This document shows, piece by piece, positions 32,629 to 59,349 of a DNA stretch of 64,000 nucleotides (position 1 is the stretch's first letter; the number at the start of each line of letters is the position of its first letter). A program made the translations under genes and the position numbers. The notes under the pieces are model-generated. The model saw nothing but the letters and a program-made list of their open reading frames with translations, ran no database searches and was not told the DNA's origin. This DNA is from an uncultured Planctomycetales bacterium (lineage in GTDB: Bacteria; Omnitrophota; Gorgyraeia; Gygaellales; Profunditerraquicolaceae): contig CAZIUK010000003.1 in NCBI GenBank assembly GCA_964542785.1, positions 12,946 through 76,945 of the forward strand, given 5' to 3'.

Positions 32629-32665
32629 GGGGACAGCGACTTTTTTATCAAAAAGTCGCTGTCCC
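32629..32665. repeat. REP-like inverted pair (hairpin) between the two secretin genes
   Basis: GGGGACAGCGACTTTTT-tatc-AAAAAGTCGCTGTCCC forms a perfect 16-bp stem. Confidence 0.95.
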
Positions 32666-32670
32666 TATTT

Positions 32671-36656: not shown

Positions 36657-36670
36657 GGGGGACAGCGACT
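36657..36670 (+). repeat. Solo REP-like half-site
   Basis: GGGGACAGCGACT. Confidence 0.85.
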
Positions 36671-36791
36671 ATTTATAAGAGTAATATTTATAATAAAATA
36701 GAGTAGTTTTACGATTGTTATTTTAGGATAAATATAATATACTTAAGGTACAGGTTAAAAATAAAAAATGGCAGGTATAATGAAAATAATA

Positions 36792-36818: not shown

Positions 36819-36872
36819 GGGGACAGCGACTATTACTATTTTTGCGCTATGATAAAAAAAGTCGCTGTCCCC
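36819..36872. repeat. REP-like inverted pair with a 30-nt spacer, overlapping the start codon of the next gene
   Basis: GGGGACAGCGAC (36819-36830) pairs with GTCGCTGTCCCC (36861-36872). The ATG at 36849 lies inside the spacer. Confidence 0.9.
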
Positions 36873-39338
36873 ATTTTGGTTGCGTGTTTTTTTGTTGTCG
36901 CAGCGCAGGCAGAGGTCTTGGTAATTAAAGCTCCCTTAACTTGGGGGCTTGATAAATCCGCAGAATACCCTTTGCCAAAAGTATTAAACGGTATTTATAC
37001 AACTGACCAGTTTGTAGCTACTGAAGGACAAGTTAGCGCTATTACGATGAATTGGGAATCAAGGGGCGCTATATCAATGGAGGTAAGCGCTGATAATGGG
37101 CTGCATTATACTCCGGTAATAAATGGCGTTCCTTTAGAGAGCGGTTTTGTAAGTGGAGATAGGATTCGCTGGCGGGCACAAGCGCTAAATGAGGATGCGC
37201 AGTTAACAGCGGTGAATCTTTCTTATTCTGATACATCCGGAGTAATAGGGGATTTTGGCCAGCCACTTTTAAGCGGATTTATGTACCGTAAAGAATTTAT
37301 AGTGCGCAATGATTCTAGAGAAGATTTATACAATTATCAGATGAAGCTAAGAATAGGGGAAAGTGAATTAGCCAAGGATGCTGATATCTGCCTTTCTAAA
37401 AAAGCAAAAGAGGATTTTAGCGATATAAGAATTAGCGCATCTGATGGTAAGCGTATTTTATCCTATTATCTTGAAAGCATAGAAGGCGAGCTTCCAGGAA
37501 AGCGCAGTGCTGTAATTTGGGTTAATATTCCTCAACTGCCAAAAGAAAAAGATTTAAAGCTTTACCTATATTATGGGAATCCGCAGGCTTTAAGTTTATC
37601 AAGCGGCGAGCAGACGTTTGATTTTTTTGATGATTTTAAAGACCCTGCCAAGAGCAATGAGAAATGGATAACCTATACAGAAAAAAACGGTACCTTGCAA
37701 TTAAAAAATGGGGAAATTAAGCTTGATGCAGCCGAAGCCATTACAAAAGATTTTCTTTTTAAAGAAGGAATTGTTGAGTATCCCGTAGAGATTGAGAGCG
37801 GTTTTGAAAACAGTTTAAACTTGCGTGTCCAGAATGGTAACTCTTATGATATTCCGCTTTGGTCGGGTTATTCTTCTTTATACAAAGGTGCAGAGCATTG
37901 CATTGCTGTAGAGGGGACAGTAAGAAATAATGACACAACTGCTCTACCTTCTTTTGCCGGAAATAGGTATTACTACCGTTTTGAATATTTTAATGGTAAT
38001 ATAGTCTTTAGCCGTTTTGATGCTTTGACTAAAGAAAAGCAGGCAGAGGCAGTCTTTAAGTCTGATTCTTTGCAAAAAATAGGCTATCTGTCTTTGCGTT
38101 CCGGAGGTGACGGGAATGGCAAGAATGTTATTCGTTTTGGCGCTATACTTGTGCGTAAAGCTGCTTTAATCAAACCGTATTTTGTTTCAGCAGGAAAAGA
38201 AGAGCAACTCTCTTTGCCTATTTTTTCCGGTACAACTCTTTCTTCTTTTGGGAGCCTTACTTTGGCCAAAGGGGCAATGAGCGGGCATTATATTTCAAGT
38301 AATATCCGAAGCGAAGACCAGATAAGGATCATGATCCCTGACTGGGATATTGATTCTCTTGGAGGAGAGTTTATCTTACATCTTTCTGCTGATGCCGGCG
38401 GGTCATATAAGAAAGGCTGCGAAAAGGGGAAGTATTATTATGCTTCAAAAAAGGATTTTGTCCCCGGGAAAAACTTAAAGATACGCATTGACCTTTTAAA
38501 AGGGGCAGGCTCCGAAGTCGAAAAAGTCGCTGTCCCCTTTGTGAAGGTGGAGCATAGGGCAGGAAAGGTAAATATTATTTCACCTAATGGCAGAGAGGTC
38601 TGGGAGGTAGGAAGCAGTAAGAAGATTAGCTGGAGTGCCTTGGATTACGATGAAACTTATCTTTTTGATTTAGCTTACTCTGTCAATGGAGGAAAGGATT
38701 ATATTGAGATTATAGCCAATAAAGATAATGATGGAGTTTATACTTGGGTTGTCCCGGATAAAATTACTAAAATCGCAAAGATAAAGATATCTGATTCTTT
38801 GGATAAAGGTATTTATGATCTTTCCGATGCTTATTTTTCTATTGTAGCTAGAGAAGATTTAAGCATTCAGGAAGAGAAAAAAGAAGAAGCAGGGGTAGTA
38901 GTGCAGGCAGCGCTAAAAGATAAAGCCAGTAAAGAGAGCAAAGATAAGAAAGATAAAGTTACTAAAGAAAGCAAAAAGAAGAAAGATAAAGTTAGCAAAG
39001 AGAACAAAAAGTTGCCGGGGAAAAATCTTTATGATCTTTTAATTAAGATAGGCGATAGCAGGTCTTCCTACAGCGAGGGGGATATTGTTATCTTAAGGCC
39101 TTCAGGTTATATTTGGAGCGTTGAAGAGAGGGAGAAGTTTTTGATTGCGCAGGTATACCTAACTGAAAAGCAGGCTGAGGAATTAACCTCTCCTTTAAAA
39201 ACAAAGGATGGAGAGATATTAAGCCGCAGGAAATATAGGATTAACTTGCTTAAGCAGGGGCTTAAAGGTTTGACAGGGTCAATTAAAAGGCCAAAGGGCT
39301 CTTTTGAGGCAGGGGTTATTGAGGATAAGGCAAATTAG
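36849..39338 (+). CDS. Large secreted protein with a DUF2341-like domain, beta-sandwich modules and a Lys-rich segment
   Basis: The start is set at MIKKVAVPILVACFFVVAAQAEV (signal peptide). The DUF2341-like pattern is YRKEFIVRN...DFSDIRISASDGKRILSYYLES...AVIWVNIPQLP...LYLYYGNPQA. An IISPNGREVWEVGSSKKISW module is present. The K-rich repeat is KDKVTKESKKKKDKVSKENKK. Confidence 0.6.
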   Translation: MIKKVAVPILVACFFVVAAQAEVLVIKAPLTWGLDKSAEYPLPKVLNGIYTTDQFVATEGQVSAITMNWESRGAISMEVSADNGLHYTPVINGVPLESGFVSGDRIRWRAQALNEDAQLTAVNLSYSDTSGVIGDFGQPLLSGFMYRKEFIVRNDSREDLYNYQMKLRIGESELAKDADICLSKKAKEDFSDIRISASDGKRILSYYLESIEGELPGKRSAVIWVNIPQLPKEKDLKLYLYYGNPQALSLSSGEQTFDFFDDFKDPAKSNEKWITYTEKNGTLQLKNGEIKLDAAEAITKDFLFKEGIVEYPVEIESGFENSLNLRVQNGNSYDIPLWSGYSSLYKGAEHCIAVEGTVRNNDTTALPSFAGNRYYYRFEYFNGNIVFSRFDALTKEKQAEAVFKSDSLQKIGYLSLRSGGDGNGKNVIRFGAILVRKAALIKPYFVSAGKEEQLSLPIFSGTTLSSFGSLTLAKGAMSGHYISSNIRSEDQIRIMIPDWDIDSLGGEFILHLSADAGGSYKKGCEKGKYYYASKKDFVPGKNLKIRIDLLKGAGSEVEKVAVPFVKVEHRAGKVNIISPNGREVWEVGSSKKISWSALDYDETYLFDLAYSVNGGKDYIEIIANKDNDGVYTWVVPDKITKIAKIKISDSLDKGIYDLSDAYFSIVAREDLSIQEEKKEEAGVVVQAALKDKASKESKDKKDKVTKESKKKKDKVSKENKKLPGKNLYDLLIKIGDSRSSYSEGDIVILRPSGYIWSVEEREKFLIAQVYLTEKQAEELTSPLKTKDGEILSRRKYRINLLKQGLKGLTGSIKRPKGSFEAGVIEDKAN
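38521..38537 (-). repeat. REP-like half-site inside the coding sequence
   Basis: AAAAAGTCGCTGTCCCC is translated in frame as EKVAVPF. Confidence 0.85.
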
Positions 39339-44022: not shown

Positions 44023-47000
44023 ATGAAGAAAATACTCAAGGTATTATTAATAGGCGGGTTAGCGCTCTGGGGTTATTTTGAATCCGCATCCTTGGCTTTA
44101 GGAGCTAATCTTTCTATCTCAAGCGCGTCTGATCAGACCTTTATCTCTGAGGAAGCGCCTAAGGATGCGCAGGCTATAACCATTACTGATGTATCTGGAT
44201 CCGGCATAATCGTTTCAAGCGGGTTGAGGATACTTATCCCGGATTCTTTCGGGATGCAGTGGCATGGGGCTATGCTTAGGGATGATAGCGTGACTGATAC
44301 CTCTAACGCTGATTTTAGTGTTATTGCCGCGCAGATAATCTCTGCCGGGGTAACCTTGGAAAGTTCAGATGCCGGAGCAACCGGGAGCGTGGAGGTTAAT
44401 TTTACCAGTATAAACTCTATACCTGCTGATGCAAAGATAGTGATTACATTCCCGGATAATTTTGTTTTTAATTCTAAAAGCCCAACTCTTGCTTCTTCTG
44501 CCACAATGAGCGGGGATTTTAGTGTTAGTATTACTGGGCAGGTTATAACAGTTACCCGCAACTCAACTTCGGCTTCTTCTGCTGGAAGCCACTTAATTAC
44601 CTTAACTAATATTAAGAATCCGATTAGGCCGGGAACAACTGGGGCATATTCATTGAAGATCCAGACTCTGGCGGGGTTTGATATTGATGTGAATAATGAT
44701 TTAGCCGCTTCCACGATTGTCCCTGCGGCAACTTCCCGTATAACTTTAAATTCTCCGGATGATATGACTGCAGGCGCAGCGCGCGCAGCCTACACCTTAA
44801 CCCGTTATGATGAGTACGGTAATTTAAGTACACAAGAGGAAGAAGTCTTTGACATTTCAACTACCTCTACCGGGGATAATGCTGTTTTCTACAATGATGC
44901 TACTGCAAGCGAAGCCGGGAATATCATTACCAGTATCACTATCCCCCAGGGTTCTTCTTCGGTTAACTTCTGGTATGACGATACCAAGATGGGGGCGTAT
45001 ACAATTGCGGCTATTAAATCAGATCAGCCTGAGATTACCGTTTCTGATGGTATAAATGTAAAGCATGCTGAACCGGATCATTTAAGGTTTGTTTCTGATA
45101 TACCTACTGCGGATGCCAAGCAGGTCTCTGTGCAGTTTAACCTGCCTCAGCTTGCTGCTGTTGACCGTTATGATAATATACTTACTAATGACTACGGAGC
45201 TGCTGCTTATTCCGGGAATAAGGCTATAACCTATTCCTTAAGCGGTCAAAGAGACGCTCCCGACGGAAATGGGACAGATCTTTTTTATTCCGACAATGTA
45301 GCTTCGGCGAAGGTAAATTTTACTAACGGCCTCTCAACAAATGCCCTTAGCGCTAAGTTATACCGGGCGCAGAATACGGTTATATCCCCGGCGGATAGTA
45401 ATCTTCCCAGCGAGAGTCTTCCTTCTAACGAGATTATTGTTAACCCGGCTACAGCGACAAAACTGGTCTTTAAACAGCAGCCTTCTGGCAGTGCGATAGT
45501 CAACTCTGCCTTTTTACAACAGCCGGTAGTAGCTATCCAGGATCATTACGGCAACCAGACTTTGGATATATTCCCGATAAAGCTCTATGATTCTATCCGT
45601 TCGGAATTTCCTTATGCCGATGCTCCTGGAATTTTAACTTCTGACCACGAGGATAATACATTAAATGCCGTTGCAGGCGAGGCGTCTTTTAGCGGGGTTG
45701 AATATAATGCCTCAGGTGTAATATACCTGTATGCCCAAGGATTAGGCGCAGGCAGCAATGTTAACCCTGTTTTTTCAAATGAGATAACCCTGGCTACTTC
45801 CGTCACAACCATGGTTAAGGCCGCGGATACTCCTGTAGCTGACTTTAACCTAACTCCTACCAACGATACATTGGAAAAGAAGTTTAAGGTTTTAAAGTTT
45901 AAGGTAACTGATGCCGGAGAAGATAAGACTCCTACATTGATCGATCAGATTAAAATAGCAGTATCCGGCACCGGGGGTCATGCTTCTACAGATATTGCCT
46001 GGGCAGGTTTATATGTAGGAGAAGAAAAGGTGGCGGATGCTGCTTCTATAACAGATGACTTTATTACTTTTGGGCAGGAGCCTAACAGCGATTCTACTGC
46101 AGGTATCTACAGCGTGCCTGATAGTAGCTCTGTTGAATTTACCGTGTATATCCATATGAAGCCGGATAAGTTATCCGCCCTTGACGGCCAGTCGTATATC
46201 TTTACTACTGATGAAGATAGGGTAGGGGTTGACAGAGGGGCTTCTTCGCAAATGACGGCAAGCTCAGGCAGTATAGCCGCTGTTACCGGAACTATTAAAG
46301 TTGATATGACGCATCTTGAGATTGTAACTGAAGAAGGAGCCTCAACATTAACTGTCTCTGCTGGGGTGCCGGTAGAGCTGTTGGTGCGCGCTACCGACGC
46401 TAATAAGAACATAGATAGCGATTATAATGGTAGCCATACCTTAGTCTTCTCAGGGTTAAATAGTGTTGGTACCCTTTACCCAAAGATAGAGAGTGTCCTT
46501 TTTGGCTATAATATAACTATTTCTTTTTCAGGAGGTATTTCTGCTTCTCAAGGAGTTACCCTTACTCCTTATAAGAGCGAGGAAGGTATAATCGTTGTCC
46601 AGGAATCAGGAAAGTCTTACAGTCAGCATGGATTAACTGCCACGATTGTCCCTGCGGCGACTTCCCGTATAACTTTAAATTCTCCGGATGATATGACTGC
46701 AGGCGCAGCGCGCGCAGCCTACACCTTAACCCGTTATGATGAGTACGGTAATTTAAGTACACAAGAGGAAGAAGTCTTTGACATTTCAACTACCTCTACC
46801 GGGGATAATGCTGTTTTCTACAATGATGCTACTGCAAGCGAAGCCGGGAATATCATTACCAGTATCACTATCCCCCAGGGTTCTTCTTCGGTTAACTTCT
46901 GGTATGACGATACCAAGATGGGGGCGTATACAATTGCGGCTATTAAATCAGATCAGCCTGAGATTACCGTTTCTGATGGTATAAATGTAAAGCATGCTGA

Positions 47001-50000
47001 ACCGGATCATTTAAGGTTTGTTTCTGATATACCTACTGCGGATGCCAAGCAGGTCTCTGTGCAGTTTAACCTGCCTCAGCTTGCTGCTGTTGACCGTTAT
47101 GATAATATACTTACTAATGACTACGGAGCTGCTGCTTATTCCGGGAATAAGGCTATAACCTATTCCTTAAGCGGTCAAAGAGACGCTCCCGACGGAAATG
47201 GGACAGATCTTTTTTATTCCGACAATGTAGCTTCGGCGAAGGTAAATTTTACTAACGGCCTCTCAACAAATGCCCTTAGCGCTAAGTTATACCGGGCGCA
47301 GAATACGGTTATATCCCCGGCGGATAGTAATCTTCCCAGCGAGAGTCTTCCTTCTAACGAGATTATTGTTAACCCGGCTACAGCGACAAAACTGGTCTTT
47401 AAACAGCAGCCTTCTGGCAGTGCGATAGTCAACTCTGCCTTTTTACAACAGCCGGTAGTAGCTATCCAGGATCATTACGGCAACCAGACTTTGGATATAT
47501 TCCCGATAAAGCTCTATGATTCTATCCGTTCGGAATTTCCTTATGCCGATGCTCCTGGAATTTTAACTTCTGACCACGAGGATAATACATTAAATGCCGT
47601 TGCAGGCGAGGCGTCTTTTAGCGGGGTTGAATATAATGCCTCAGGTGTAATATACCTGTATGCCCAAGGATTAGGCGCAGGCAGCAATGTTAACCCTGTT
47701 TTTTCAAATGAGATAACCCTGGCTACTTCCGTCACAACCATGGTTAAGGCCGCGGATACTCCTGTAGCTGACTTTAACCTAACTCCTACCAACGATACAT
47801 TGGAAAAGAAGTTTAAGGTTTTAAAGTTTAAGGTAACTGATGCCGGAGAAGATAAGACTCCTACATTGATCGATCAGATTAAAATAGCAGTATCCGGCAC
47901 CGGGGGTCATGCTTCTACAGATATTGCCTGGGCAGGTTTATATGTAGGAGAAGAAAAGGTGGCGGATGCTGCTTCTATAACAGATGACTTTATTACTTTT
48001 GGGCAGGAGCCTAACAGCGATTCTACTGCAGGTATCTACAGCGTGCCTGATAGTAGCTCTGTTGAATTTACCGTGTATATCCATATGAAGCCGGATAAGT
48101 TATCCGCCCTTGACGGCCAGTCGTATATCTTTACTACTGATGAAGATAGGGTAGGGGTTGACAGAGGGGCTTCTTCGCAAATGACGGCAAGCTCAGGCAG
48201 TATAGCCGCTGTTACCGGAACTATTAAAGTTGATATGACGCATCTTGAGATTGTAACTGAAGAAGGAGCCTCAACATTAACTGTCTCTGCTGGGGTGCCG
48301 GTAGAGCTGTTGGTGCGCGCTACCGACGCTAATAAGAACATAGATAGCGATTATAATGGTAGCCATACCTTAGTCTTCTCAGGGTTAAATAGTGTTGGTA
48401 CCCTTTACCCAAAGATAGAGAGTGTCCTTTTTGGCTATAATATAACTATTTCTTTTTCAGGAGGTATTTCTGCTTCTCAAGGAGTTACCCTTACTCCTTA
48501 TAAGAGCGAGGAAGGTATAATCGTTGTCCAGGAATCAGGAAAGTCTTACAGTCAGCATGGATTAACTGCCACGATTAATGCGGGTGCTGCCAGTAATATT
48601 GCCCTATTAAGCGGCAATAACCAATCTGGAAAGATAGCCGCGCCTCTACTCCAGGCTTTTGTGGTGGCAGTTACCGATGTTTATGGTAATGGTATTGGAT
48701 CTGGGACCGGGGTTGATTTTGCTATTCTTAGCCAGCCTGAAGGTGCAACAGGAGCTTTATTAAGCACTATTTCTGGTGTAACTGATGCTAATGGCCATGC
48801 CTTTACAACCCTGACTGTAGGTAGCCTTGCTGGTGATTATCAGGTGACTGCTTCTTCAGCGGGGTTATCTGGTTCACCGGTAACTTTTATCGCTACGGGT
48901 TTACTCCCTAGTGCAATTCAGCTTTTAAGCGGAGATAACCAGTCTAAACAGGTAGTTTCTGCATTAGATGACCCTCTGGTAGTTAAAATAGTTGATTCAA
49001 CAGGTATTCCTATTCCTCGTGAGAAAGTGGATTTTACTATATCTTCTTATCCTGAAGGCGCGGTTGGGCAAGCGCTCTTGTCAGGCTCAGTGGTAACTGA
49101 TGATAACGGCCAGGCACAGACCAGCTTTACTTTAGGAGATAAGGCAGGGGTTTACAAGGTAACTGTTAATTGCGGTTCGCTTACTGCGGTTGATTTTAAT
49201 TTTAATGCTACTGCCAGGGCTCCTTATCAGGTAGCCTTAAGAGGTCCGGTTTCAGTCAAGGCAGGGGAGGTCTCTACCAAATTTACCGTCTCCATAGAGG
49301 ATGAATACAATAATCCTTCTAATTTATCCCAGGCAACTGTATTTTCATTAACCAATAATCCTTCTCGGCCAAGCGGAATATTTTATTCAAATAGCGACGG
49401 GACGTTAGCAATTAATTCTCTGACTGTAGCTAAGGGTACGAATAGCGCCAGTTTTTACTATAAGGATACAATAACTGGCATGGCGAATATTACGGCAACC
49501 CGTACTAGCGGGCAGTCTTTAATCCAGGGAATATCAAGCCAGGAAGTTACGGTTATCCCTTCGGATGCCTATCGTTTTACTATTGTTGGCAATACTGATA
49601 CTATAGAGACAGGGGAAAGTAAAGTATTGACCATAACCGCTTATGATAATTTAGGCAATGTAAAGAGCGATTATACCGGGAATGTTAATGTTCTCTTCTC
49701 TGGGGCTAGTGCTTCCCCAGCTCCTTCATCAAAGAAAGCCACAGCTTCTAACCATCTAAGTCAGGATATTGAATTTGGAAAGACTACCAGCCTAAACTTT
49801 ATTAATGGTGTAGCTGTTTCAACCTTGAAGTTTTATAAAGTAGAGGATGTGAATATAAAGATAACCAGCGGTTCAATAGTTACTGCTGAAGAGGATAGTC
49901 TAAGCTTTACCGTCAGGCATGGTCAGGCAGATCACTTGAAATTCGGCGGGAATCTTCCTGCTTTGCAGGAGGCGGGGGTAGAGTTTGATTTTGAAACTAC

Positions 50001-53000
50001 GCTGCAAGCGGTTGACCTTTATGATAATATCTGCAACGGCCTTAATGGTTCTTCCGGATTCTCTGGTTCAAAGAAGGTTACCTGGAGTTTAAGCGGAGCT
50101 TCTGATGGACCTGAGGGGAATGTTATTGATGAGTTTGTCAGTCCTGTAGAGTTTAGCTTAGGGGTATCCACTACTACTTTAAGCGCAAAGCTCTACCGTG
50201 CACAGGATACCACCATTACCGCTGCTATTTCTGCTTTAATAGGGGTAAATGTTGCTTCGAATACAATTACAGTTGAGCCTGGGGCAGTAGCAAAGCTAAG
50301 GTTCTCTCAGGAGCCTGCGGCTTCTTCCATTACCAGTCAGGCTTTAGAGGTACAGCCTAAGGTTGCGGTAAGTGATCAGTATGGTAACCCTGTTTCTACT
50401 ACCTCGGCTAACGTAAGCATTGCTGCTTCAACTAGCAATGATTCATTTGTACCTGTGGTTAATGGAGTATTAAGCGCTATTGGAGGACTTACAGCATCTA
50501 CAGTTAACGGAGTAGCTTCTTTTAGCGGAGTAACCTATAATTATCCTGAGACTATTTACCTTCGCGCCACAGTCGCAGGGGTAAGCCTGGTGCCGGTATT
50601 CTCTTCAGGTATAACATTTAGTACCGCTCAGGAAACAGCTCTCTCTGTTACTACACCAGGGCCTACTGCTATTTCTTCTCTTGCCTATACTACTGCAGAC
50701 AGAGTTGGGGTGCTTAATTTTAGGGTTGTTGATGGGGGGACTGATGGTTTCTCCAGTAAGATACGCCAGGTGATTGTAAAGCGCAACACCTCTGATACTA
50801 CCGGCGGGTGGACAAATTACCTGCAGGGAGTCTATATTACCGATGGAGCAACGCAGGTGGTTGGGAGGATAGAGGATGATCAGATTATTTTTGGCTTGGG
50901 GGGAAATGATATTTATGATGTTACTAACGGCACGACTAAGAATTTTACTGTGAGCGTATTTTTGAAGAATCCGCTCCCCTTAGATTCAGATAATAAGGTT
51001 TTGGGTTTCAAGCTTGATCCGGCTACAGATATAGTATTTGGTTCACCTAGCTCTAGGCTTGTCTCTTCTTCTGTGATGAGTTCAACTCCAAAGATCTCGG
51101 TTGTGGCTACTGATTTTGCTATTTTTGGCTCTCCTACCATGAATGCCGGAGATACCCAGCCGATTACGCTTAAGGCCGTAGATATACTGGGCAATATTGA
51201 TAAGGATTATGTTGGAGAAAAAACTTTAGTTTTTAGCGGACCAAGTATAACGAGTAAAGGAAATGAGCCCATCGAGACGACCTCAAATATTCCTTTTGGT
51301 ACGGATACCCCGGTTTCTTTTACCAACGGCCAGAGCTCATCTACCGTCGGGATTAAACTCTTTAAAGCCGAAACTGCTTATGTTAAGGCAGCCGATATTT
51401 CTGCGGGGATAACTACTCCTAATCAGAAAGCCTTGATTGTTACGGTTTACGGCGGAGCTGCCACGGGTTTAAGTTGGCTTACCCAGCCGGTGGGCGTAGT
51501 TGTCGAAAATGCCCCGTGGAAAGAGTTTAGTATTTCAGTTACCGATGCTTATGGCAATACCTCATCCAGCAGTACTGAGGTAACCGTAGCTCCTTCTAAC
51601 GGCAGTATCTCTACAGGTTCGCAGGCAACAGTTACCGCTCAATCGGGAATAGCCACATTCTATAATTTTGCGGTAAATGGTCTTAATGATGAAGAGAAGA
51701 TCACTTTAAGCGCATCAGCAAGCGGGGTAGCCGGTACCGGTCCTTCCAATGAAGTGCAGGTATTTAAGGTTTATAAGGTAACGGTCTTTGTAAAAGATTA
51801 TACTAGCGCTAGTAATCTTACTGAATGCGCTTTGGATGCCACATCTAACGGAGTAGTCGTAGATGGTTTTCCAAAGACAGGCAACAGCCCGTTTACTTTT
51901 AACTTGCCCTACGGGACGTATACCTTCCGGGTCTCTAAGGAAAAATATGTTGATGAAAACACCGAAAAGACAGCTGGTGTTGCCGCGGATTACCTGGACG
52001 GAGTATATGATGCAAAGATTACCTGGTCTTTGACTGCTACAAGTTTAGTTGAGGCTACTGCTGATTATAAAGCACAGAGCGCTTTTGTTTATGATGAAAG
52101 TACTGACAAGCTTTCTATCCGCGTCTGGCTGGAGAAGCGCGGGAAGATGGTAGTTAATGATGATGTTAATATTTTAGGTAATGCGGTTGTAGATATCTAT
52201 AATGATTCTACCGGGGGATGGCTTAAGTCAATTACCTTAGAGCCTCCTGCTGCGTCTAATACTGTAAATGGAGTTTATTTTAAGGAGATACCTAATGTAG
52301 TTTCTGTTGACGATGATTTTAACCTTGTTGCAGGCAAGACCTATTTTGCCCGTGTTGTCATTAATTATGGTGGGCTTACTGGTACAGGCAGAAGTTATGA
52401 AGGAGGAGCGACCTTTAGTGTTACTATAAACGAGAATCTGCGCGCAGTTACTAATTCTATTCAGACGGTTGCTACTAATATCGCCGGGCAGACTGCGGCA
52501 ATTCAAAAGACGATAAAGGATGAGATAGAAGGCCAGATTACTAGTGTTGTTGTGCCTAAGATTACTGATGTAAAGACTGAGACATCTAAGATTCTTTCTG
52601 CCACAGGCACAGAGTCTTTGCAGGATAAGATTGCCGAGGTAAAAACACAGGTAGTCCAGGAGGTTCAGCCGCATATTAAATCCGGTATATTAAATGGAGA
52701 GACTGCGGTAAGAACTGGCTCTAAACTAGCTGTTCGTTATCGAACTGATTCTGGACTTTCTCCAACGATATCCGTATATAGCCCCAAGAACAATCTTCTT
52801 ATCTCCGACAGGGCTATGGCAGAGATAGGGATAACGGGAATCTATGAGTATAATGTAACATTTTTACCGGCTTGGGGGAGGGGATCCTTTACTATTGTTT
52901 GTTCAGAGCCGGTAAAAGGAACAGCTGATGCCTTTGTGCTTAAGGTAAGTGATTCGGATATAGAGGATATATCAAGTAGTGTCTCTGCTGTTTTAGGTAG

Positions 53001-53370
53001 CACCTCTGGCATTACCAACCTTAAGAAAGTAACCGAAACCTTAAACGCGCAGTTTAGTGATATGGATAAGGCTATTGCCCAAATCAGCAAGAATATTACT
53101 GGAAAGGTTGAAGAGGTAAAAGGGGCTGCCGTTGAACTTGCCGGCGTATTTAAGCAGCTTGAGGATATGAGTAATACCATTAAGAGCTTAGGAGGGACAG
53201 CCGGTATAAATATTGATAAGATTTACGAGGTATCTAAAGATAAGCAGGAGGATATTAGTTATATTAAGAATAAGAGCGAAGAGCTTAAGGCGGCGATGGA
53301 GCTTAACCAAAAGATGATAGAGAATGTTGCTAAGAAGCCAGTAGTTCAAACCTGGTTTGAATTCAAGTAA
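44023..53370 (+). CDS. Giant (3115 aa) secreted surface protein with Big/Ig-like repeats and a coiled-coil-like C-terminus
   Basis: It has a signal peptide. Invasin/intimin-type Big-like units are visible (LLSGNNQSGKIAAPLLQAFVVAVTDVYGNG...DYQVTASSAGLSGSPVTF). A 643-aa module occurs twice almost identically, and a diverged third copy lies at about 49.5-51.5 kb. A carboxypeptidase-regulatory-like segment is also present (YKVTVFVKD...GTYTFRVSKEKY). Confidence 0.75.
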   Translation: MKKILKVLLIGGLALWGYFESASLALGANLSISSASDQTFISEEAPKDAQAITITDVSGSGIIVSSGLRILIPDSFGMQWHGAMLRDDSVTDTSNADFSVIAAQIISAGVTLESSDAGATGSVEVNFTSINSIPADAKIVITFPDNFVFNSKSPTLASSATMSGDFSVSITGQVITVTRNSTSASSAGSHLITLTNIKNPIRPGTTGAYSLKIQTLAGFDIDVNNDLAASTIVPAATSRITLNSPDDMTAGAARAAYTLTRYDEYGNLSTQEEEVFDISTTSTGDNAVFYNDATASEAGNIITSITIPQGSSSVNFWYDDTKMGAYTIAAIKSDQPEITVSDGINVKHAEPDHLRFVSDIPTADAKQVSVQFNLPQLAAVDRYDNILTNDYGAAAYSGNKAITYSLSGQRDAPDGNGTDLFYSDNVASAKVNFTNGLSTNALSAKLYRAQNTVISPADSNLPSESLPSNEIIVNPATATKLVFKQQPSGSAIVNSAFLQQPVVAIQDHYGNQTLDIFPIKLYDSIRSEFPYADAPGILTSDHEDNTLNAVAGEASFSGVEYNASGVIYLYAQGLGAGSNVNPVFSNEITLATSVTTMVKAADTPVADFNLTPTNDTLEKKFKVLKFKVTDAGEDKTPTLIDQIKIAVSGTGGHASTDIAWAGLYVGEEKVADAASITDDFITFGQEPNSDSTAGIYSVPDSSSVEFTVYIHMKPDKLSALDGQSYIFTTDEDRVGVDRGASSQMTASSGSIAAVTGTIKVDMTHLEIVTEEGASTLTVSAGVPVELLVRATDANKNIDSDYNGSHTLVFSGLNSVGTLYPKIESVLFGYNITISFSGGISASQGVTLTPYKSEEGIIVVQESGKSYSQHGLTATIVPAATSRITLNSPDDMTAGAARAAYTLTRYDEYGNLSTQEEEVFDISTTSTGDNAVFYNDATASEAGNIITSITIPQGSSSVNFWYDDTKMGAYTIAAIKSDQPEITVSDGINVKHAEPDHLRFVSDIPTADAKQVSVQFNLPQLAAVDRYDNILTNDYGAAAYSGNKAITYSLSGQRDAPDGNGTDLFYSDNVASAKVNFTNGLSTNALSAKLYRAQNTVISPADSNLPSESLPSNEIIVNPATATKLVFKQQPSGSAIVNSAFLQQPVVAIQDHYGNQTLDIFPIKLYDSIRSEFPYADAPGILTSDHEDNTLNAVAGEASFSGVEYNASGVIYLYAQGLGAGSNVNPVFSNEITLATSVTTMVKAADTPVADFNLTPTNDTLEKKFKVLKFKVTDAGEDKTPTLIDQIKIAVSGTGGHASTDIAWAGLYVGEEKVADAASITDDFITFGQEPNSDSTAGIYSVPDSSSVEFTVYIHMKPDKLSALDGQSYIFTTDEDRVGVDRGASSQMTASSGSIAAVTGTIKVDMTHLEIVTEEGASTLTVSAGVPVELLVRATDANKNIDSDYNGSHTLVFSGLNSVGTLYPKIESVLFGYNITISFSGGISASQGVTLTPYKSEEGIIVVQESGKSYSQHGLTATINAGAASNIALLSGNNQSGKIAAPLLQAFVVAVTDVYGNGIGSGTGVDFAILSQPEGATGALLSTISGVTDANGHAFTTLTVGSLAGDYQVTASSAGLSGSPVTFIATGLLPSAIQLLSGDNQSKQVVSALDDPLVVKIVDSTGIPIPREKVDFTISSYPEGAVGQALLSGSVVTDDNGQAQTSFTLGDKAGVYKVTVNCGSLTAVDFNFNATARAPYQVALRGPVSVKAGEVSTKFTVSIEDEYNNPSNLSQATVFSLTNNPSRPSGIFYSNSDGTLAINSLTVAKGTNSASFYYKDTITGMANITATRTSGQSLIQGISSQEVTVIPSDAYRFTIVGNTDTIETGESKVLTITAYDNLGNVKSDYTGNVNVLFSGASASPAPSSKKATASNHLSQDIEFGKTTSLNFINGVAVSTLKFYKVEDVNIKITSGSIVTAEEDSLSFTVRHGQADHLKFGGNLPALQEAGVEFDFETTLQAVDLYDNICNGLNGSSGFSGSKKVTWSLSGASDGPEGNVIDEFVSPVEFSLGVSTTTLSAKLYRAQDTTITAAISALIGVNVASNTITVEPGAVAKLRFSQEPAASSITSQALEVQPKVAVSDQYGNPVSTTSANVSIAASTSNDSFVPVVNGVLSAIGGLTASTVNGVASFSGVTYNYPETIYLRATVAGVSLVPVFSSGITFSTAQETALSVTTPGPTAISSLAYTTADRVGVLNFRVVDGGTDGFSSKIRQVIVKRNTSDTTGGWTNYLQGVYITDGATQVVGRIEDDQIIFGLGGNDIYDVTNGTTKNFTVSVFLKNPLPLDSDNKVLGFKLDPATDIVFGSPSSRLVSSSVMSSTPKISVVATDFAIFGSPTMNAGDTQPITLKAVDILGNIDKDYVGEKTLVFSGPSITSKGNEPIETTSNIPFGTDTPVSFTNGQSSSTVGIKLFKAETAYVKAADISAGITTPNQKALIVTVYGGAATGLSWLTQPVGVVVENAPWKEFSISVTDAYGNTSSSSTEVTVAPSNGSISTGSQATVTAQSGIATFYNFAVNGLNDEEKITLSASASGVAGTGPSNEVQVFKVYKVTVFVKDYTSASNLTECALDATSNGVVVDGFPKTGNSPFTFNLPYGTYTFRVSKEKYVDENTEKTAGVAADYLDGVYDAKITWSLTATSLVEATADYKAQSAFVYDESTDKLSIRVWLEKRGKMVVNDDVNILGNAVVDIYNDSTGGWLKSITLEPPAASNTVNGVYFKEIPNVVSVDDDFNLVAGKTYFARVVINYGGLTGTGRSYEGGATFSVTINENLRAVTNSIQTVATNIAGQTAAIQKTIKDEIEGQITSVVVPKITDVKTETSKILSATGTESLQDKIAEVKTQVVQEVQPHIKSGILNGETAVRTGSKLAVRYRTDSGLSPTISVYSPKNNLLISDRAMAEIGITGIYEYNVTFLPAWGRGSFTIVCSEPVKGTADAFVLKVSDSDIEDISSSVSAVLGSTSGITNLKKVTETLNAQFSDMDKAIAQISKNITGKVEEVKGAAVELAGVFKQLEDMSNTIKSLGGTAGINIDKIYEVSKDKQEDISYIKNKSEELKAAMELNQKMIENVAKKPVVQTWFEFK
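44711..48576 (+). repeat. Near-perfect in-frame tandem duplication, 2 x 1929 bp
   Basis: Copy 1 spans 44711-46639 and copy 2 spans 46640-48568. The shared 8-mer CCACGATT sits at all three boundaries (44711, 46640, 48569). I found one mismatch (A44730 versus G46659, synonymous). The translated copies are identical. Confidence 0.95.
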
Positions 53371-53390: not shown

Positions 53391-53449
53391 GGGGACAGCG
53401 ACTTTTTTGATAAAAAGTCGCTGTCCCCCTAGAAAAAGTCGCTGTCCCC
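53391..53449. repeat. REP-like cluster (one forward and two reverse copies) after the giant gene
   Basis: GGGGACAGCGACTTTTT-tgat-AAAAAGTCGCTGTCCCC forms a 17-bp stem. A second AAAAAGTCGCTGTCCCC follows at 53433-53449. Confidence 0.95.
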
Positions 53450-54200: not shown

Positions 54201-54266
54201 ATAAAATAAATACAAATATTATCAGGACAGATAGGGCAAGCCCTTTTAATACCTAAACGTTAATTA

Positions 54267-55046
54267 ATGAAAAGGGAATTTGTTATTTTATTAGTAATTT
54301 TATTTTTTTTTGTGCATAGTTTAGGCGCGCAGGCTTCAGAAGGGCTTTGGAATACTGAAAAGACTCAGCATTTTATAATATATTACCAGTCTGCCCAGGC
54401 AAGTTTTATTCGGGATTTGGCTTATGCCGCTGAAAGGTATTATAACAGCATTATTGATGAGCTTGGTTTTAGGCGTATGGATTTTTGGAGTTGGGATAAC
54501 CGGGCTAAAATCTATATATACAATGGATTTGAAGATTATAAAAAAGAGGCTGACCGTAAAGATTGGTCTGGTGCGGTTGTTTTTGTGGATACCCGTACTA
54601 TTAAAAGTTTTTTAGGGCAGTTTGATTTTTTTGATTCTATCCTTCCGCATGAGATGACCCATATAATATTCAGGGAATTTGTGGGTAGAGAAGCAATCCT
54701 TCCTTTGTGTATAGATGAAGGAGTTGCAAGCTCTCAGGAGAAAGGCCATTTGCATGAGAGGTTATCTTTGATAAAGAAACTTATTTTGCAGGGAAAATAT
54801 ATGCATTTTGATAAATTATTCAATATCTACCAGGCTAAGGGTATAAGCCCTCAGGAGTTTTATGCCCAGTCAGCCTCGCTCGTTGTTTTTTTAATAAAAC
54901 AATATGGAAGAGAACGTTTTGTTGATTTTAGCCGTAAATTAAGGGACGGAATGCTTTGGGATAAGGCTTTATTAAGCGTATATAAGTTTAAGAGCTTTGC
55001 AGATATGGAGAATGAGTGGAAAGATTTTATTTTGAGAAATTTCTGA
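54267..55046 (+). CDS. Secreted gluzincin-type (peptidase MA-like) metallopeptidase
   Basis: 259 aa with a signal peptide. HEMTH is followed after 18 residues by E (HEMTHIIFREFVGREAILPLCIDEG), fitting HExxH-x18-E. Confidence 0.6.
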   Translation: MKREFVILLVILFFFVHSLGAQASEGLWNTEKTQHFIIYYQSAQASFIRDLAYAAERYYNSIIDELGFRRMDFWSWDNRAKIYIYNGFEDYKKEADRKDWSGAVVFVDTRTIKSFLGQFDFFDSILPHEMTHIIFREFVGREAILPLCIDEGVASSQEKGHLHERLSLIKKLILQGKYMHFDKLFNIYQAKGISPQEFYAQSASLVVFLIKQYGRERFVDFSRKLRDGMLWDKALLSVYKFKSFADMENEWKDFILRNF

Positions 55047-55075
55047 AATACTGCTATAATAAACAGTGATATAGT

Positions 55076-55711
55076 GGGGACAGCGACTTTTTGACTTTTT
55101 ATTTTTAGCTCTTTGATAATTTTTACTTAAATTTTTAAGTTAGATTTCCTTCCTTGCCGCGTCTATTGATAGTGAAGGTGATAGATGATATAGGGCCTAA
55201 AAGGAAGGGGTGGTATGGGGAGAATAGCCAGAATAGTAGGAGTAGGGTTGCCGCACCATATTACACAGAGAAGGAATTACCAATAATGTTGCTCATATGC
55301 GTTATTCGCAGTATTTTAATAATAAATTAAACCAGCGAGGGCATCTTTGGCAGGGAAGATTTTATTCTTGTATTTTGTCGCAAGCGCACCTTATGCTTGC
55401 TGCTTGCTATATAGAGCGTAATCCTGTACGCGCGGGTTTAGTAGATCAGCCATGGCATTGGCAATGGTCAAGTGCTGCCAGCCATACAAACCGTAAGATT
55501 GATGAGTTGGTTAATTCTGATGAGTTGTTAAAGCTTGTAGGTATGTCAAGCTCTTCTTGGGAGAAATATATAGAAACAAAGGAAGAAGAGAGTTTTTTGC
55601 AGGATATAAGGAAACATACTTTTACCAGTCGTTCTTTTGGCGTGGTTTAGGTTATTTTAAGGAGCAGGTCTAAGAAGGATAGGGTTGGGTTAAAAAAAAG
55701 TCGCTGTCCCC
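55076..55711 (+). mobile_element. Decayed REPtron: RAYT pseudogene bracketed by inverted REP-like half-sites
   Basis: GGGGACAGCGACTTTTT (55076-55092) and its exact reverse complement AAAAAGTCGCTGTCCCC (55695-55711) flank the RAYT remnant. Confidence 0.7.
55215..55650 (+). pseudogene. REP-associated tyrosine transposase (RAYT, IS200/Y1-like) with an internal deletion and frame break
   Basis: The N-terminal fragment MGRIARIVGVGLPHHITQRRNYQ* (55215-55286) resembles the RAYT N-terminus. The C-terminal fragment lies in another frame (55297-55650) and carries GHLWQGRFYS and YIERNPVRAGLV..WQWSS. The central segment of about 70 aa that normally carries the HUH motif (NHxHLL) is missing. Confidence 0.7.
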
Positions 55712-55735: not shown

Positions 55736-56614
55736 ATGCATAAAGATGTAGATATTTTAGTTATCAAAGGAGAAGAAAAAGCCACAGGGTTGATTGAATC
55801 TACGGTTCGTTCTGCAGGCTACAATGTTTGGTTGGCCAATGATCATAATGAAGGCTTGAAGCTTTTGCGTTCTAATACTTTCCCGATAGTAATTACAGAA
55901 GTACTTTCTGTAAAGATGGATGTTGCTCACTTTTGTAGAGAGGTCAACAAACTAAGCCCGTTGACTAACGTGATTGTTGTTGCCCTCTATTCTTTAATTA
56001 ATAACGCTATTAAGGCTATGGAGGCAGGGGCTTACGGGTATATTACTAAGCCACTAAATGTTTCTGAAATACGTATAGTCGTGGAGAGGGCAGTAGAGAG
56101 GTACTTTCTGTTTTCTGCCAGGGAAGATAAGGATTATTTTGTTGATTTAGCTGTAAGGGATGGGCTTACCGGACTTTTTAATCGGCGCTATTTTAATGAA
56201 TTAATAAAAATAGAGTTTAGCCGCATTAAGCGGTTACCGTCGTTTCTCTCTCTGCTAATTCTTGACATAGATAATTTTAAAAACTATAATGATACGCAAG
56301 GACATAGCGCAGGCGACATTTTATTAAAGAATGCCGCTAAAATTTTTAAGAGTTCTGTGCGTACCGTAGATATAGTTTTTCGCTATGGGGGAGAGGAGTT
56401 TGCAGTAATACTTCCTAGTACAGATAAAAAAGGGGCTCAGATTATTGCAGAGAGGATACGTATGCAGGTGAGCCTGTATCTACCTACTACTGTAAGTATA
56501 GGCATTTCTACTGCCCCAGAAGATGCCGAGGAGATAAGCCTATTGATAGAGAAGGCGGATAAGGCTTTGTATCAAGCGAAGAACAGTGGTAAAAATAAGT
56601 GGTGTGTTGCATGA
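55736..56614 (+). CDS. Diguanylate cyclase with a degenerate receiver domain (REC-GGDEF)
   Basis: 292 aa. The active site GGEEF has an RxxD I-site (RTVD) 5 residues upstream. In the REC domain the phospho-acceptor position reads IVITEV (Glu instead of Asp), and the acidic pair is replaced (ILVIKGEE). Confidence 0.8.
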   Translation: MHKDVDILVIKGEEKATGLIESTVRSAGYNVWLANDHNEGLKLLRSNTFPIVITEVLSVKMDVAHFCREVNKLSPLTNVIVVALYSLINNAIKAMEAGAYGYITKPLNVSEIRIVVERAVERYFLFSAREDKDYFVDLAVRDGLTGLFNRRYFNELIKIEFSRIKRLPSFLSLLILDIDNFKNYNDTQGHSAGDILLKNAAKIFKSSVRTVDIVFRYGGEEFAVILPSTDKKGAQIIAERIRMQVSLYLPTTVSIGISTAPEDAEEISLLIEKADKALYQAKNSGKNKWCVA

Positions 56615-59251: not shown

Positions 59252-59264
59252 ATGGGATAAATGA

Positions 59265-59337
59265 AATGGGGGACGAAATGGGGGACAGCGACTTTTTTCT
59301 AAAAAAAGTCGCTGTCCTCCCATAAAGTCGCTGTCCC
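59265..59337. repeat. REP-like cluster between atpA and atpG
   Basis: A partial head AATGGGGGAC is followed by GGGGACAGCGACTTTTTT (59281-59298). Reverse copies are AAAAAAAGTCGCTGTCC (59301-59317) and AAAGTCGCTGTCCC (59324-59337). Confidence 0.9.
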
Positions 59338-59349
59338 TCCCATTAAAAG

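Follow-up and report, generated by a model that had tools for sequence, protein, structure and literature searches.

REPIN-RAYT systems, in which transposases associated with repetitive extragenic palindromes (REP-associated tyrosine transposases, RAYTs) of Groups 2 and 3 go with REPs that have a GTAG foot, are reportedly those described by Nunvar in 2010 and by Bertels and Rainey in 2011. RAYT-like genes that are flanked by terminal inverted repeats (TIRs) and not by GTAG REPs have also been reported, where the elements were named TIRtrons and their enzymes TIRYTs (Di Nocera et al., 2013; PMC3733652). TIRtron repeats have the sequence GGGGWSAS in common and keep a constant distance to the gene; the TIR families are moderately abundant and occur in dimers and clusters (PMC3733652). 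The TIRYTs are subclass 2.1 of TnpA-Y1, which is the same as Group 1 of Bertels, and this subclass exhibits the motifs NHVH, W[EQ], YIELNP, and a tail SS motif, with no REP-like sequences reported for it (Quentin et al., 2018; PMC6006769). The flanking 16-mers of Group 1 have ~12 genomic copies (Bertels et al., 2017; PMC5581495). In this work, we have identified an element at positions 55076-55711 of a 64-kb stretch of Omnitrophota DNA (the window, which denotes the whole stretch) that is very probably a decayed TIRtron, the remnant of a fixed and vertically inherited Y1/HUH TIRYT gene between its cognate terminal inverted repeats.

The locus consists of two gene fragments between two repeat arms. 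The exact 17-mer GGGGACAGCGACTTTTT is found at 55076-55092 and its reverse complement, AAAAAGTCGCTGTCCCC on the + strand, is found at 55695-55711. The arms were identified by repeat search as a 17-nt inverted pair that is 100% complementary, with 602 nt between them. Both arms contain the core GGGGACAG and pair with each other in the minimum-energy fold of the whole 656-nt stretch. The list of open reading frames (ORFs) contains a 23-codon ORF, MGRIARIVGVGLPHHITQRRNYQ, that ends with a stop (55215-55286), and a 117-aa ORF in another frame (55297-55650) that contains GHLWQGRFYS, YIERNPVRAGLV, and WQWSS. The stop of the N-terminal fragment and the ATG of the 117-aa ORF are 10 nt apart, and both fragments are collinear on alignment to intact orthologues. 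The first-pass annotation of this DNA had described two fragments 10 nt apart in different frames that are bracketed by the 17-mer and its reverse complement, and it had read them as parts of one Y1/HUH gene with the HUH motif in the missing central region. Each of these statements was borne out, by the ORF list, by the sequence and repeat search, by the orthologue alignments, and by the position of NHVH within the deleted block, respectively. The features of the locus are as follows.

55032-55060, + strand: promoter-like site outside the left repeat (TTGAGA, 17-nt spacer, TATAAT, TG before the -10; consensus score 11/12), of putative function
55076-55092, + strand: left terminal inverted repeat unit GGGGACAGCGACTTTTT, whose core GGGGACAG fits the TIRtron consensus GGGGWSAS
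55091-55120, + strand: second promoter-like site, whose -35 box TTGACT directly adjoins the left repeat on its inner side (consensus score 10/12)
55108-55214, + strand: conserved leader from the left repeat to the start codon, with blocks CTTTGAYAAT, GTTAGATT, and CCGCGTCTATT, then a GGAGG-like ribosome-binding site, in invariant alignment columns
55215-55286, + strand: N-terminal fragment, residues 1-23 and a TAA stop, with G20R (AGG, 55272-55274) in the QRGN motif
55283-55284, + strand: deletion junction, with blastn block boundaries at 55283 and 55284, and a frameshift
55285-55650, + strand: C-terminal fragment, equivalent to orthologue residues 78-198, with the ORF start ATG at 55297 and a derived TAG end at 55648-55650 (GAG in L009)
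55695-55711, - strand: right unit of the terminal inverted repeat, which reads AAAAAGTCGCTGTCCCC on the + strand, 24 nt before the response-regulator/GGDEF gene, whose start is at 55736

Intact orthologues of the gene were identified in related species. Two relatives of full length were found in the protein collection, P0001 (205 aa, 78% identical) and P0002 (211 aa, 69%, Omnitrophota), as well as P0003, the 85-aa ORF of the source genome. The nearest full-length protein on record, at 78% identity, is encoded in the syntenic slot of a different species. The slot consists of a Peptidase_MA_2 gene, the transposase gene, a response-regulator/GGDEF gene, and the ATP synthase genes, and it matches the window. 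The contigs that encode P0001 and P0002 carry the intact gene in this slot, and the intact gene is found in the same slot in the loci L001/L002, L003/L004, L007, and L009. The slot is occupied in at least five related species and the gene identities track those of the neighbouring genes. L009, which belongs to an Omnitrophota metagenome-assembled genome (JBASUY010000059.1), was identified from a scan of species-representative genomes. The neighbour proteins of this sister species are 82-96% identical to those of the window, and its intact 225-aa gene is 95% identical to both window fragments (95.7% for the N-terminal fragment against L009 residues 1-23) and has the same flanking 17-mers. Within the 64-kb window, neither a second copy of the transposase gene nor a tnpB partner was found.

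The DNA alignments with the orthologues place the loss in the window copy at exactly 161 nt, which are L009 7080-7240. The deleted block encodes residues 24-77 (~54 codons), QKVFLNTDDRKQYLLWIKEYSLKYGLSILAYCLMPNHVHFVAVPGKIDSLAKTF, including PNHVHF, and roughly Pfam profile positions 17-76 are gone with it together with the HUH motif. Homology resumes at 55284/55285, thus only the 161-nt block is missing between the fragments. Microhomology was looked for at the deletion junction (ACCAA/CAG...ATT/TAATG) and was not found. The changes in the window lineage were polarised with three outgroups, and the further ones are G20R in QRGN, K132Q, S190F, G192S, and GAG>TAG (E199*) at 55648-55650. The window lineage acquired five non-synonymous or nonsense changes against one synonymous change, and the L009 lineage acquired one against two; these small numbers point towards relaxed constraint. 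Judged from the frameshifting 161-nt deletion, G20R, and the nonsense codon, the window copy of the transposase gene is dead. The first-pass annotation was right that the copy is dead but its estimate of about 70 deleted codons was too large.

There is next to no probability that an intact gene lies behind an artefact of assembly or sequencing, and no evidence for such an artefact was found. The deletion recurs in Logan contigs from two other runs, SRR29782965 and SRR16642416, which match the window at 100% identity over 2170 and 950 nt. This speaks against an error of assembly; the first-pass annotation had raised an artefact at the junction as a possibility. The additional independent lesions G20R and E199* also speak against an artefact. 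A second, independent loss was identified in the same slot in L042 (JAFGUY010000058.1, 2493-3064), where the N-terminus and the HUH region were lost in a 190-nt deletion and another 67 nt are also missing. The decayed L042 locus retains both flanking repeat units.

The protein family was assigned from profile searches, motifs, and blastp. On its own, the C-terminal fragment of the window aligns weakly to NCBIfam REP_Tyr_transpos at profile positions 96-146 (E = 1e-8, 35 bits, cut-off 80) and to Pfam Y1_Tnp at positions 77-121 (E = 0.03). The intact orthologues acquired 51-57 bits with Pfam Y1_Tnp (cut-off 23), 66.8-73.4 bits with REP_Tyr_transpos, which is under the cut-off of 80, and 18-25 bits with the IS200 model NF033573 (cut-off 55), which is far below REP_Tyr_transpos. 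P0001, P0002, and L009 carry PNHVHF, LWQGRF, YIERNP, and WSS. The window fragment is without HUH but keeps LWQGRF with its WQ, YIERNP (catalytic Tyr codon 55408-55410), and WSS. The C-terminal tail has WQWSS and IRKHT.TGR; of its distal part, which ends in ...GRPRK in longer members, the proteins of this clade (205-225 aa) have little or nothing. A Protein Data Bank sequence search with the intact orthologue returned nothing at E <= 1. The L009 orthologue was also compared by blastp with the named TIRYT and RAYT sequences of Di Nocera Additional file 5, as follows.

GSU2396 (TIRYT): 47% identity, full length, E = 9e-68
Pca3049 (TIRYT): 43%, E = 7e-55
aba2776 (TIRYT): 41%, E = 2e-51
ccr1445: 34%
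sml1152: 32%
pfs4255 (P. fluorescens RAYT): 26%, partial, E = 1e-7
b228 (E. coli RAYT): 23%, partial, E = 3e-4

By its sequence, the gene is a member of the TIRYT branch (RAYT Group 1 / TnpA-Y1 subclass 2.1) and not a canonical RAYT. The TIRYT identity, the motifs, and the GGGGWSAS-type repeat core class the element as a decayed TIRtron.

The repeats are associated with the enzyme across species. Units with the core GGGACAGCG are found on both sides of the gene in all orthologous loci. The left unit is found at the matching place in L009 (6873+), and L001, L007, and L042 have species-specific variants there. The flanking variants are as follows.

Window and L009: GGGGACAGCGACTTTTT
L001, L007, and L042: AGGGACAGCGACC(A/T)TTT
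L003 and L004: GGGGACAGCGCCCAT

The association was also examined in 72 full-length homologous loci (40-86% identity, both flanks present) from records labelled Omnitrophota, 'Planctomycetia', Elusimicrobia, Syntrophus/Smithella, Caulobacteraceae, Gammaproteobacteria, and others. A flanking inverted repeat with a score >= 13 is found at the same position in 57/72 loci and in 0/150 shuffles (maximum 11). GGGACAG is found in 42 arms and the strict GGGGWSAS in 19, and the median distance from the end of the left arm to the start codon is 42 nt. The variant of each species recurs elsewhere within its locus; L003 has 8 such units, for example, L051 has 12, and L009 has at least 6. The orthologous intergenic clusters (after the 3115-aa gene and after atpA) bear the gene-flanking variant of each species, as enzyme-linked turnover or conversion predicts. 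The link between the repeat family and its probable mobilising enzyme that the first-pass annotation had drawn is upheld by these loci and by the syntenic intact orthologues with the same flanks.

Several observations were made on the units next to the gene. In L003 (3620-3650) and L004 (1520-1550), the core of the left unit is flipped (CGCTGTC, not GACAGCG) and the flanks are direct instead of inverted. The stem of this unit, ATAAATGGG/CCCATTTAT, is palindromic, and the loop may thus have inverted by recombination within the stem. The VAVP codons after the HUH motif (HFVAVP) read GTCGCTGTCCCT in L003 (3946-3957) and L004 (1846-1857) and GTTGCTGTTCCC in L009. GTCGCTGTCCCT matches 11/12 of the reverse complement of the repeat core, and the equivalent block is deleted in the window; it may be a coincidence of codon choice or an internal repeat-like site. 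In intact orthologues (L009 7011-7688; L001 196-813), the transposase ORF extends into the right inverted repeat, and the repeat-encoded protein ends are ...KKVAVPILGA in L009 and ...EMVAVPI in P0001. In the window copy, the derived TAG halts translation 45 nt earlier. The Saganbacteria genome JABMSE01 has two homologues (L025 and L048) that are 48-49% identical to P0001 and are flanked by unrelated inverted repeats, one per gene (GTGCCAGGCAC... and CTGACACCGGTG...), which fits reports of several enzyme-repeat pairs per genome.

TTGAC is found within 23 nt inside the left unit in 23/51 homologous loci and inside the right unit in 0/51, which suggests that the gene promoter abuts the left repeat. 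The site at 55091-55120 is a putative promoter of the transposase gene. The TGCTATAATAAA of the outer promoter-like site is invariant across 6/6 aligned orthologous loci. AATACTGCTATAATAAA (55047-55063), which is outside the left repeat and readable as an extended -10 (TGnTATAAT), is near-invariant in all orthologous loci while the neighbouring intergenic DNA has diverged. As read from its sequence, the outer site could give transcripts that cross the repeat and the gene remnant and continue into the response-regulator/GGDEF and ATP synthase genes. Such transcription from 55047-55063 might be the reason for the retention of the remnant.

The 17-mer with <=3 mismatches is found 14 times in the window against 0.20 expected, and 0/100 shuffles reached 14. 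Nine of the 14 units are exact. Besides the two arms that flank the gene, there are 12 units, which are arranged as inverted doublets or triplets and two singles, as follows.

32629-32666, unstranded: tight inverted doublet (17-mer, 4 nt, 17-mer), intergenic; single-stranded DNA hairpin of -20.7 kcal/mol, z = -10.9
36658-36674, + strand: single unit with 1 mismatch
36819-36872, unstranded: inverted doublet with a 20-nt spacer, whose right arm overlaps the DUF2341 gene start; -18.2 kcal/mol, z = -7.2
38521-38537, - strand: single exact unit in coding sequence, which reads E-K-V-A-V-P
53391-53449, unstranded: three exact units (+, -, -) after the 3115-aa gene, with an orthologous cluster in L009, L042, and L003
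59281-59338, unstranded: three units (+, -, -; 0, 1, and 2 mismatches) between atpA and atpG, with orthologous doublets in L009 and L003

The doublets as single-stranded DNA form hairpins of 17-21 bp with -18 to -23 kcal/mol and z = -7 to -11. Their orientation matches that of the arms around the gene, so that the doublets look like the gene-bearing structure minus its interior. The single units of the window have 1-5 bp of self-complementarity around the core. In many relatives, the unit itself folds into a small hairpin, in which the loop is constant and the stem varies in a compensating manner (AAATAGG/CCTATTT, AAAAGGG/CCCTTTT, AACTAG/CTAGTT, and AAATGGG/CCCATTT). About 40% of the units of relatives have a perfect stem >=5 bp, and their mean stem is 4.31 against 3.89 for cross-unit pairings, where 8/2000 permutations reach the observed mean. 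The proposal that each 17-mer forms its own REP hairpin was rejected for this genome (at most 5 bp) and is valid in many relatives. A conserved GT[AG]G foot was not found among the 14 units, whose bases 5' of the core vary (AAAAG, TAATG, TAGTG, AAACG, ...), and relatives exhibit ATAGGG where the GTAG foot would be. The doublets were also considered as simple intrinsic terminators. This was rejected by a consensus scan of 52.5-60 kb that returned no site, because the T runs lie within the stems and not after them. The window has no Rfam match at gathering thresholds.

The distribution of the units was also noted. All 14 units lie in 32629-59338 and no unit with <=3 mismatches is found in the first 32.6 kb. 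A unit contributes the beginning of the DUF2341 protein (gene at 36849-39335), where 36849-36872 reads ATG ATA AAA AAA GTC GCT GTC CCC and encodes MIKKVAVP, which looks like the first residues of a signal peptide. A second exact unit (38520-38537) is in the same DUF2341 frame, as E-K-V-A-V-P around residue 558. The atpA-atpG cluster of the window (59262-59338) includes a degenerate unit as an extra third member and, upstream, a partial duplicate, ATGGGGGACGAA, where L009 (11245-11300) has a clean doublet, which indicates that the clusters changed after the species split. Between the 234-aa gene and the peptidase gene, L003 (2760-2830) has a doublet and L009 (5975-6050) has a divergent doublet; the window (54215-54255) has only a short remnant, CAGGACAGATAGGGCAAGCCC, apparently after ~50 nt were lost. 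The exact 17-mer was found at 109 loci in a metagenome scan. Eighty-six of them have only one copy of the 11-mer core with G+C up to 0.73, and many of these would be chance matches in a very large collection. The other 23 have at least two units, mostly as tight doublets, and no close intact paralogue was found among these 23. The window has a single 3115-aa ORF at 44023-53370, and its long ORFs are nearly all on the + strand; the few - strand ORFs >100 aa are all inside + strand ORFs.

The locus is similar to the described TIRtrons in the full-length identity of its protein (41-47%), in the NHVH, WQ, YIE.NP, and WSS motifs of the intact orthologues, in the inverted repeats with GGGGWSAS (here GGGGACAG) at a fixed distance from the gene, in the copies of the repeat elsewhere as dimers and clusters, and in a 3' repeat that can overlap the end of the ORF. 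It differs from them as the window copy is a pseudogene with its HUH motif deleted, the clade proteins are short, with 205-225 aa where the median is 238, and most of their distal C-terminal tail is missing, and 14 units in 64 kb are denser than the Group 1 average of ~12 per replicon. The host also differs, where Omnitrophota is not among the hosts named in the papers on TIRtrons, subclass 2.1, and Group 1, although no search was aimed at that.

The likeness to REPIN-RAYT systems includes a chromosomal Y1 gene, single within the window, with vertical inheritance, inverted cognate flanking repeats, dispersed inverted doublets that give long hairpins, and repeat variants that co-vary with the enzyme. 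A frameshifted enzyme with persisting repeats also has precedent, as the RAYT is frameshifted in Neisseria gonorrhoeae and some E. coli strains are without RAYT. The differences are the other protein branch (23-26% identity), the absence of a GTAG foot, the single units of the window that are not palindromes, and the decay of the repeats that is not yet visible. The Y1/HUH catalytic core is shared with IS200/IS605 elements (IS608 and ISDra2), and presumably also the action on single-stranded DNA and the recognition of structured ends. Unlike those elements, this one has a single copy and no tnpB in the window, has Y---NP and not Y---Q, has inverted repeats instead of same-strand subterminal hairpins, and keeps a fixed syntenic position. 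The doublets resemble miniature inverted-repeat transposable elements (MITEs), as they are the TIRtron minus its interior (left unit, 3-20 nt, and right unit in the same relative orientation). However, they are far shorter (38-54 nt), no target-site duplication was identified for them, and their presumed enzyme is a Y1 HUH protein and not a DDE transposase.

Three other explanations of the locus and its repeats were weighed against a decayed TIRtron. A canonical REPtron, with a RAYT of Group 2/3 type flanked by classical REP hairpins with the GTAG foot, is unlikely. REP_Tyr_transpos is the best NCBIfam model, the logic of one gene with inverted cognate repeats and dispersed copies is shared, and single units of relatives form hairpins such as AAATAGG-GACAGACA-CCTATTT and AACTAG-GGACAGCGA-CTAGTT. 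However, the NCBIfam scores (67-73) are under the 80-bit family cut-off, the identity to E. coli and P. fluorescens RAYTs is 23-26% and partial against 41-47% and full length to the named TIRYTs, the conserved GT[AG]G foot is absent, and single units of the window have at most 5 self-complementary bp. The label of REPtron and RAYT in the first-pass annotation is thus kept as far as relatedness and shared logic are concerned, and is replaced as far as it implies the canonical GTAG-REP class. The remnant of an autonomous IS200/IS605-type insertion, with the repeats as its ends and the dispersed copies as solo ends or MITEs, is very improbable. The same syntenic slot is occupied in at least five related species with identities that track the neighbours, scores with the IS200 model reach only 18-25 bits where the cut-off is 55, the protein has Y---NP in place of Y---Q, and the window is without a tnpB partner or a second copy. 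These outweigh the Y1_Tnp family, the inverted termini, the position of Group 1 as the most insertion sequence-like RAYT group (Bertels et al., 2017; PMC5581495), and the wide and patchy taxonomic spread of the homologues, which suggests long-term horizontal transfer.

The doublets could also be selected host regulatory elements, namely terminators, mRNA stabilisers, or protein-binding sites, whose link to the transposase is historical only. This is compatible with a decayed TIRtron but is improbable as a separate explanation. All doublets lie between co-directional genes, mostly just 3' of a stop codon, clusters are kept at orthologous positions across species, the units are exact although the gene is dead, and REPs are known for co-option into such roles (PMC3733652). 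The 52.5-60 kb region has no intrinsic-terminator-like site, however, the window has no Rfam match, and one unit lies within coding sequence (38521) and another spans a start codon (36856). Besides, orthologous clusters switch to the enzyme-flanking variant of the species, which is expected of enzyme-driven turnover or conversion and not of simple conservation.

The decayed TIRtron remains the best explanation. It is based on the anatomy of the locus, the orthology, the deletion, the protein family, the repeat-enzyme association, the co-variation with repeat variants, and the hairpin potential. The intact ancestor enzyme, which is still present in L009, would bind and cut single-stranded DNA at the units with the HUH metal site and with the YIERNP Tyr, and the promoter that abuts the left unit would drive its gene. 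The enzyme would copy or move non-autonomous derivatives in trans, and these would be the tight inverted doublets, REPIN/MITE-like, in intergenic gaps. Single-strand cleavage and mobilisation in trans are proposed here from the biochemistry of IS200/IS605 TnpA and E. coli TnpA-REP. The gene was killed, probably recently, by the 161-nt deletion, with the loss of NHVH and a shift of frame, and G20R and E199* came later. The doublets are probably REPIN/MITE-like derivatives that are now orphaned. A slow decay of the orphaned repeat population would be expected, unless another copy of the enzyme is present elsewhere in the genome. The function of the promoter and the orphaned status of the repeats are likewise suggested by analogy.

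Several points weigh against this explanation. To our knowledge, there is no biochemistry for the TIRYT branch, and the cutting of units and their mobilisation are taken by analogy. The absence of REP-like sequences in subclass 2.1 and the ~12 copies in Group 1 make a large enzyme-driven population atypical of the branch. Nine of the 14 units are exact and no decay of the repeats is visible; this fits a very recent loss and equally fits a second active enzyme elsewhere or host selection. The genome was covered over 64 kb. Many clusters are at orthologous positions in relatives, and no insertion could thus be shown to be new.

The finding is real, and the first interpretation is essentially right with its label refined to TIRYT/TIRtron. 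The locus is a clear instance, though an ordinary one, of a type of element that has already been described, and specialists would not find it surprising. Its 85- or 117-aa ORF should be annotated as a pseudogene fragment. The most abundant short repeat of an uncultured Omnitrophota lineage is tied to a specific enzyme family, and the enzyme-repeat pairing of TIRtrons, which was described for a few cultured bacteria, holds across many phyla (57/72 loci). Two large surveys had treated this branch as one without REPs or REPINs. We tentatively suggest, as a possibility that we consider somewhat doubtful, that an Omnitrophota Group 1/TIRYT enzyme maintains a dense population of REPIN-like doublets that is homogenised per species, also at orthologous sites between genes, with at least two independent deaths of the enzyme (the window and L042) and a living enzyme in L009. 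If true, this would be a natural before-and-after experiment on a repeat population that loses its replicase. The matched sister genomes with a live (L009) and a dead (window) enzyme, together with the independent second loss in L042, are useful for testing the predicted decay of repeats after the loss of a single-copy replicase. The L009 protein and its units are candidates for the first biochemical test of TIRYT activity.

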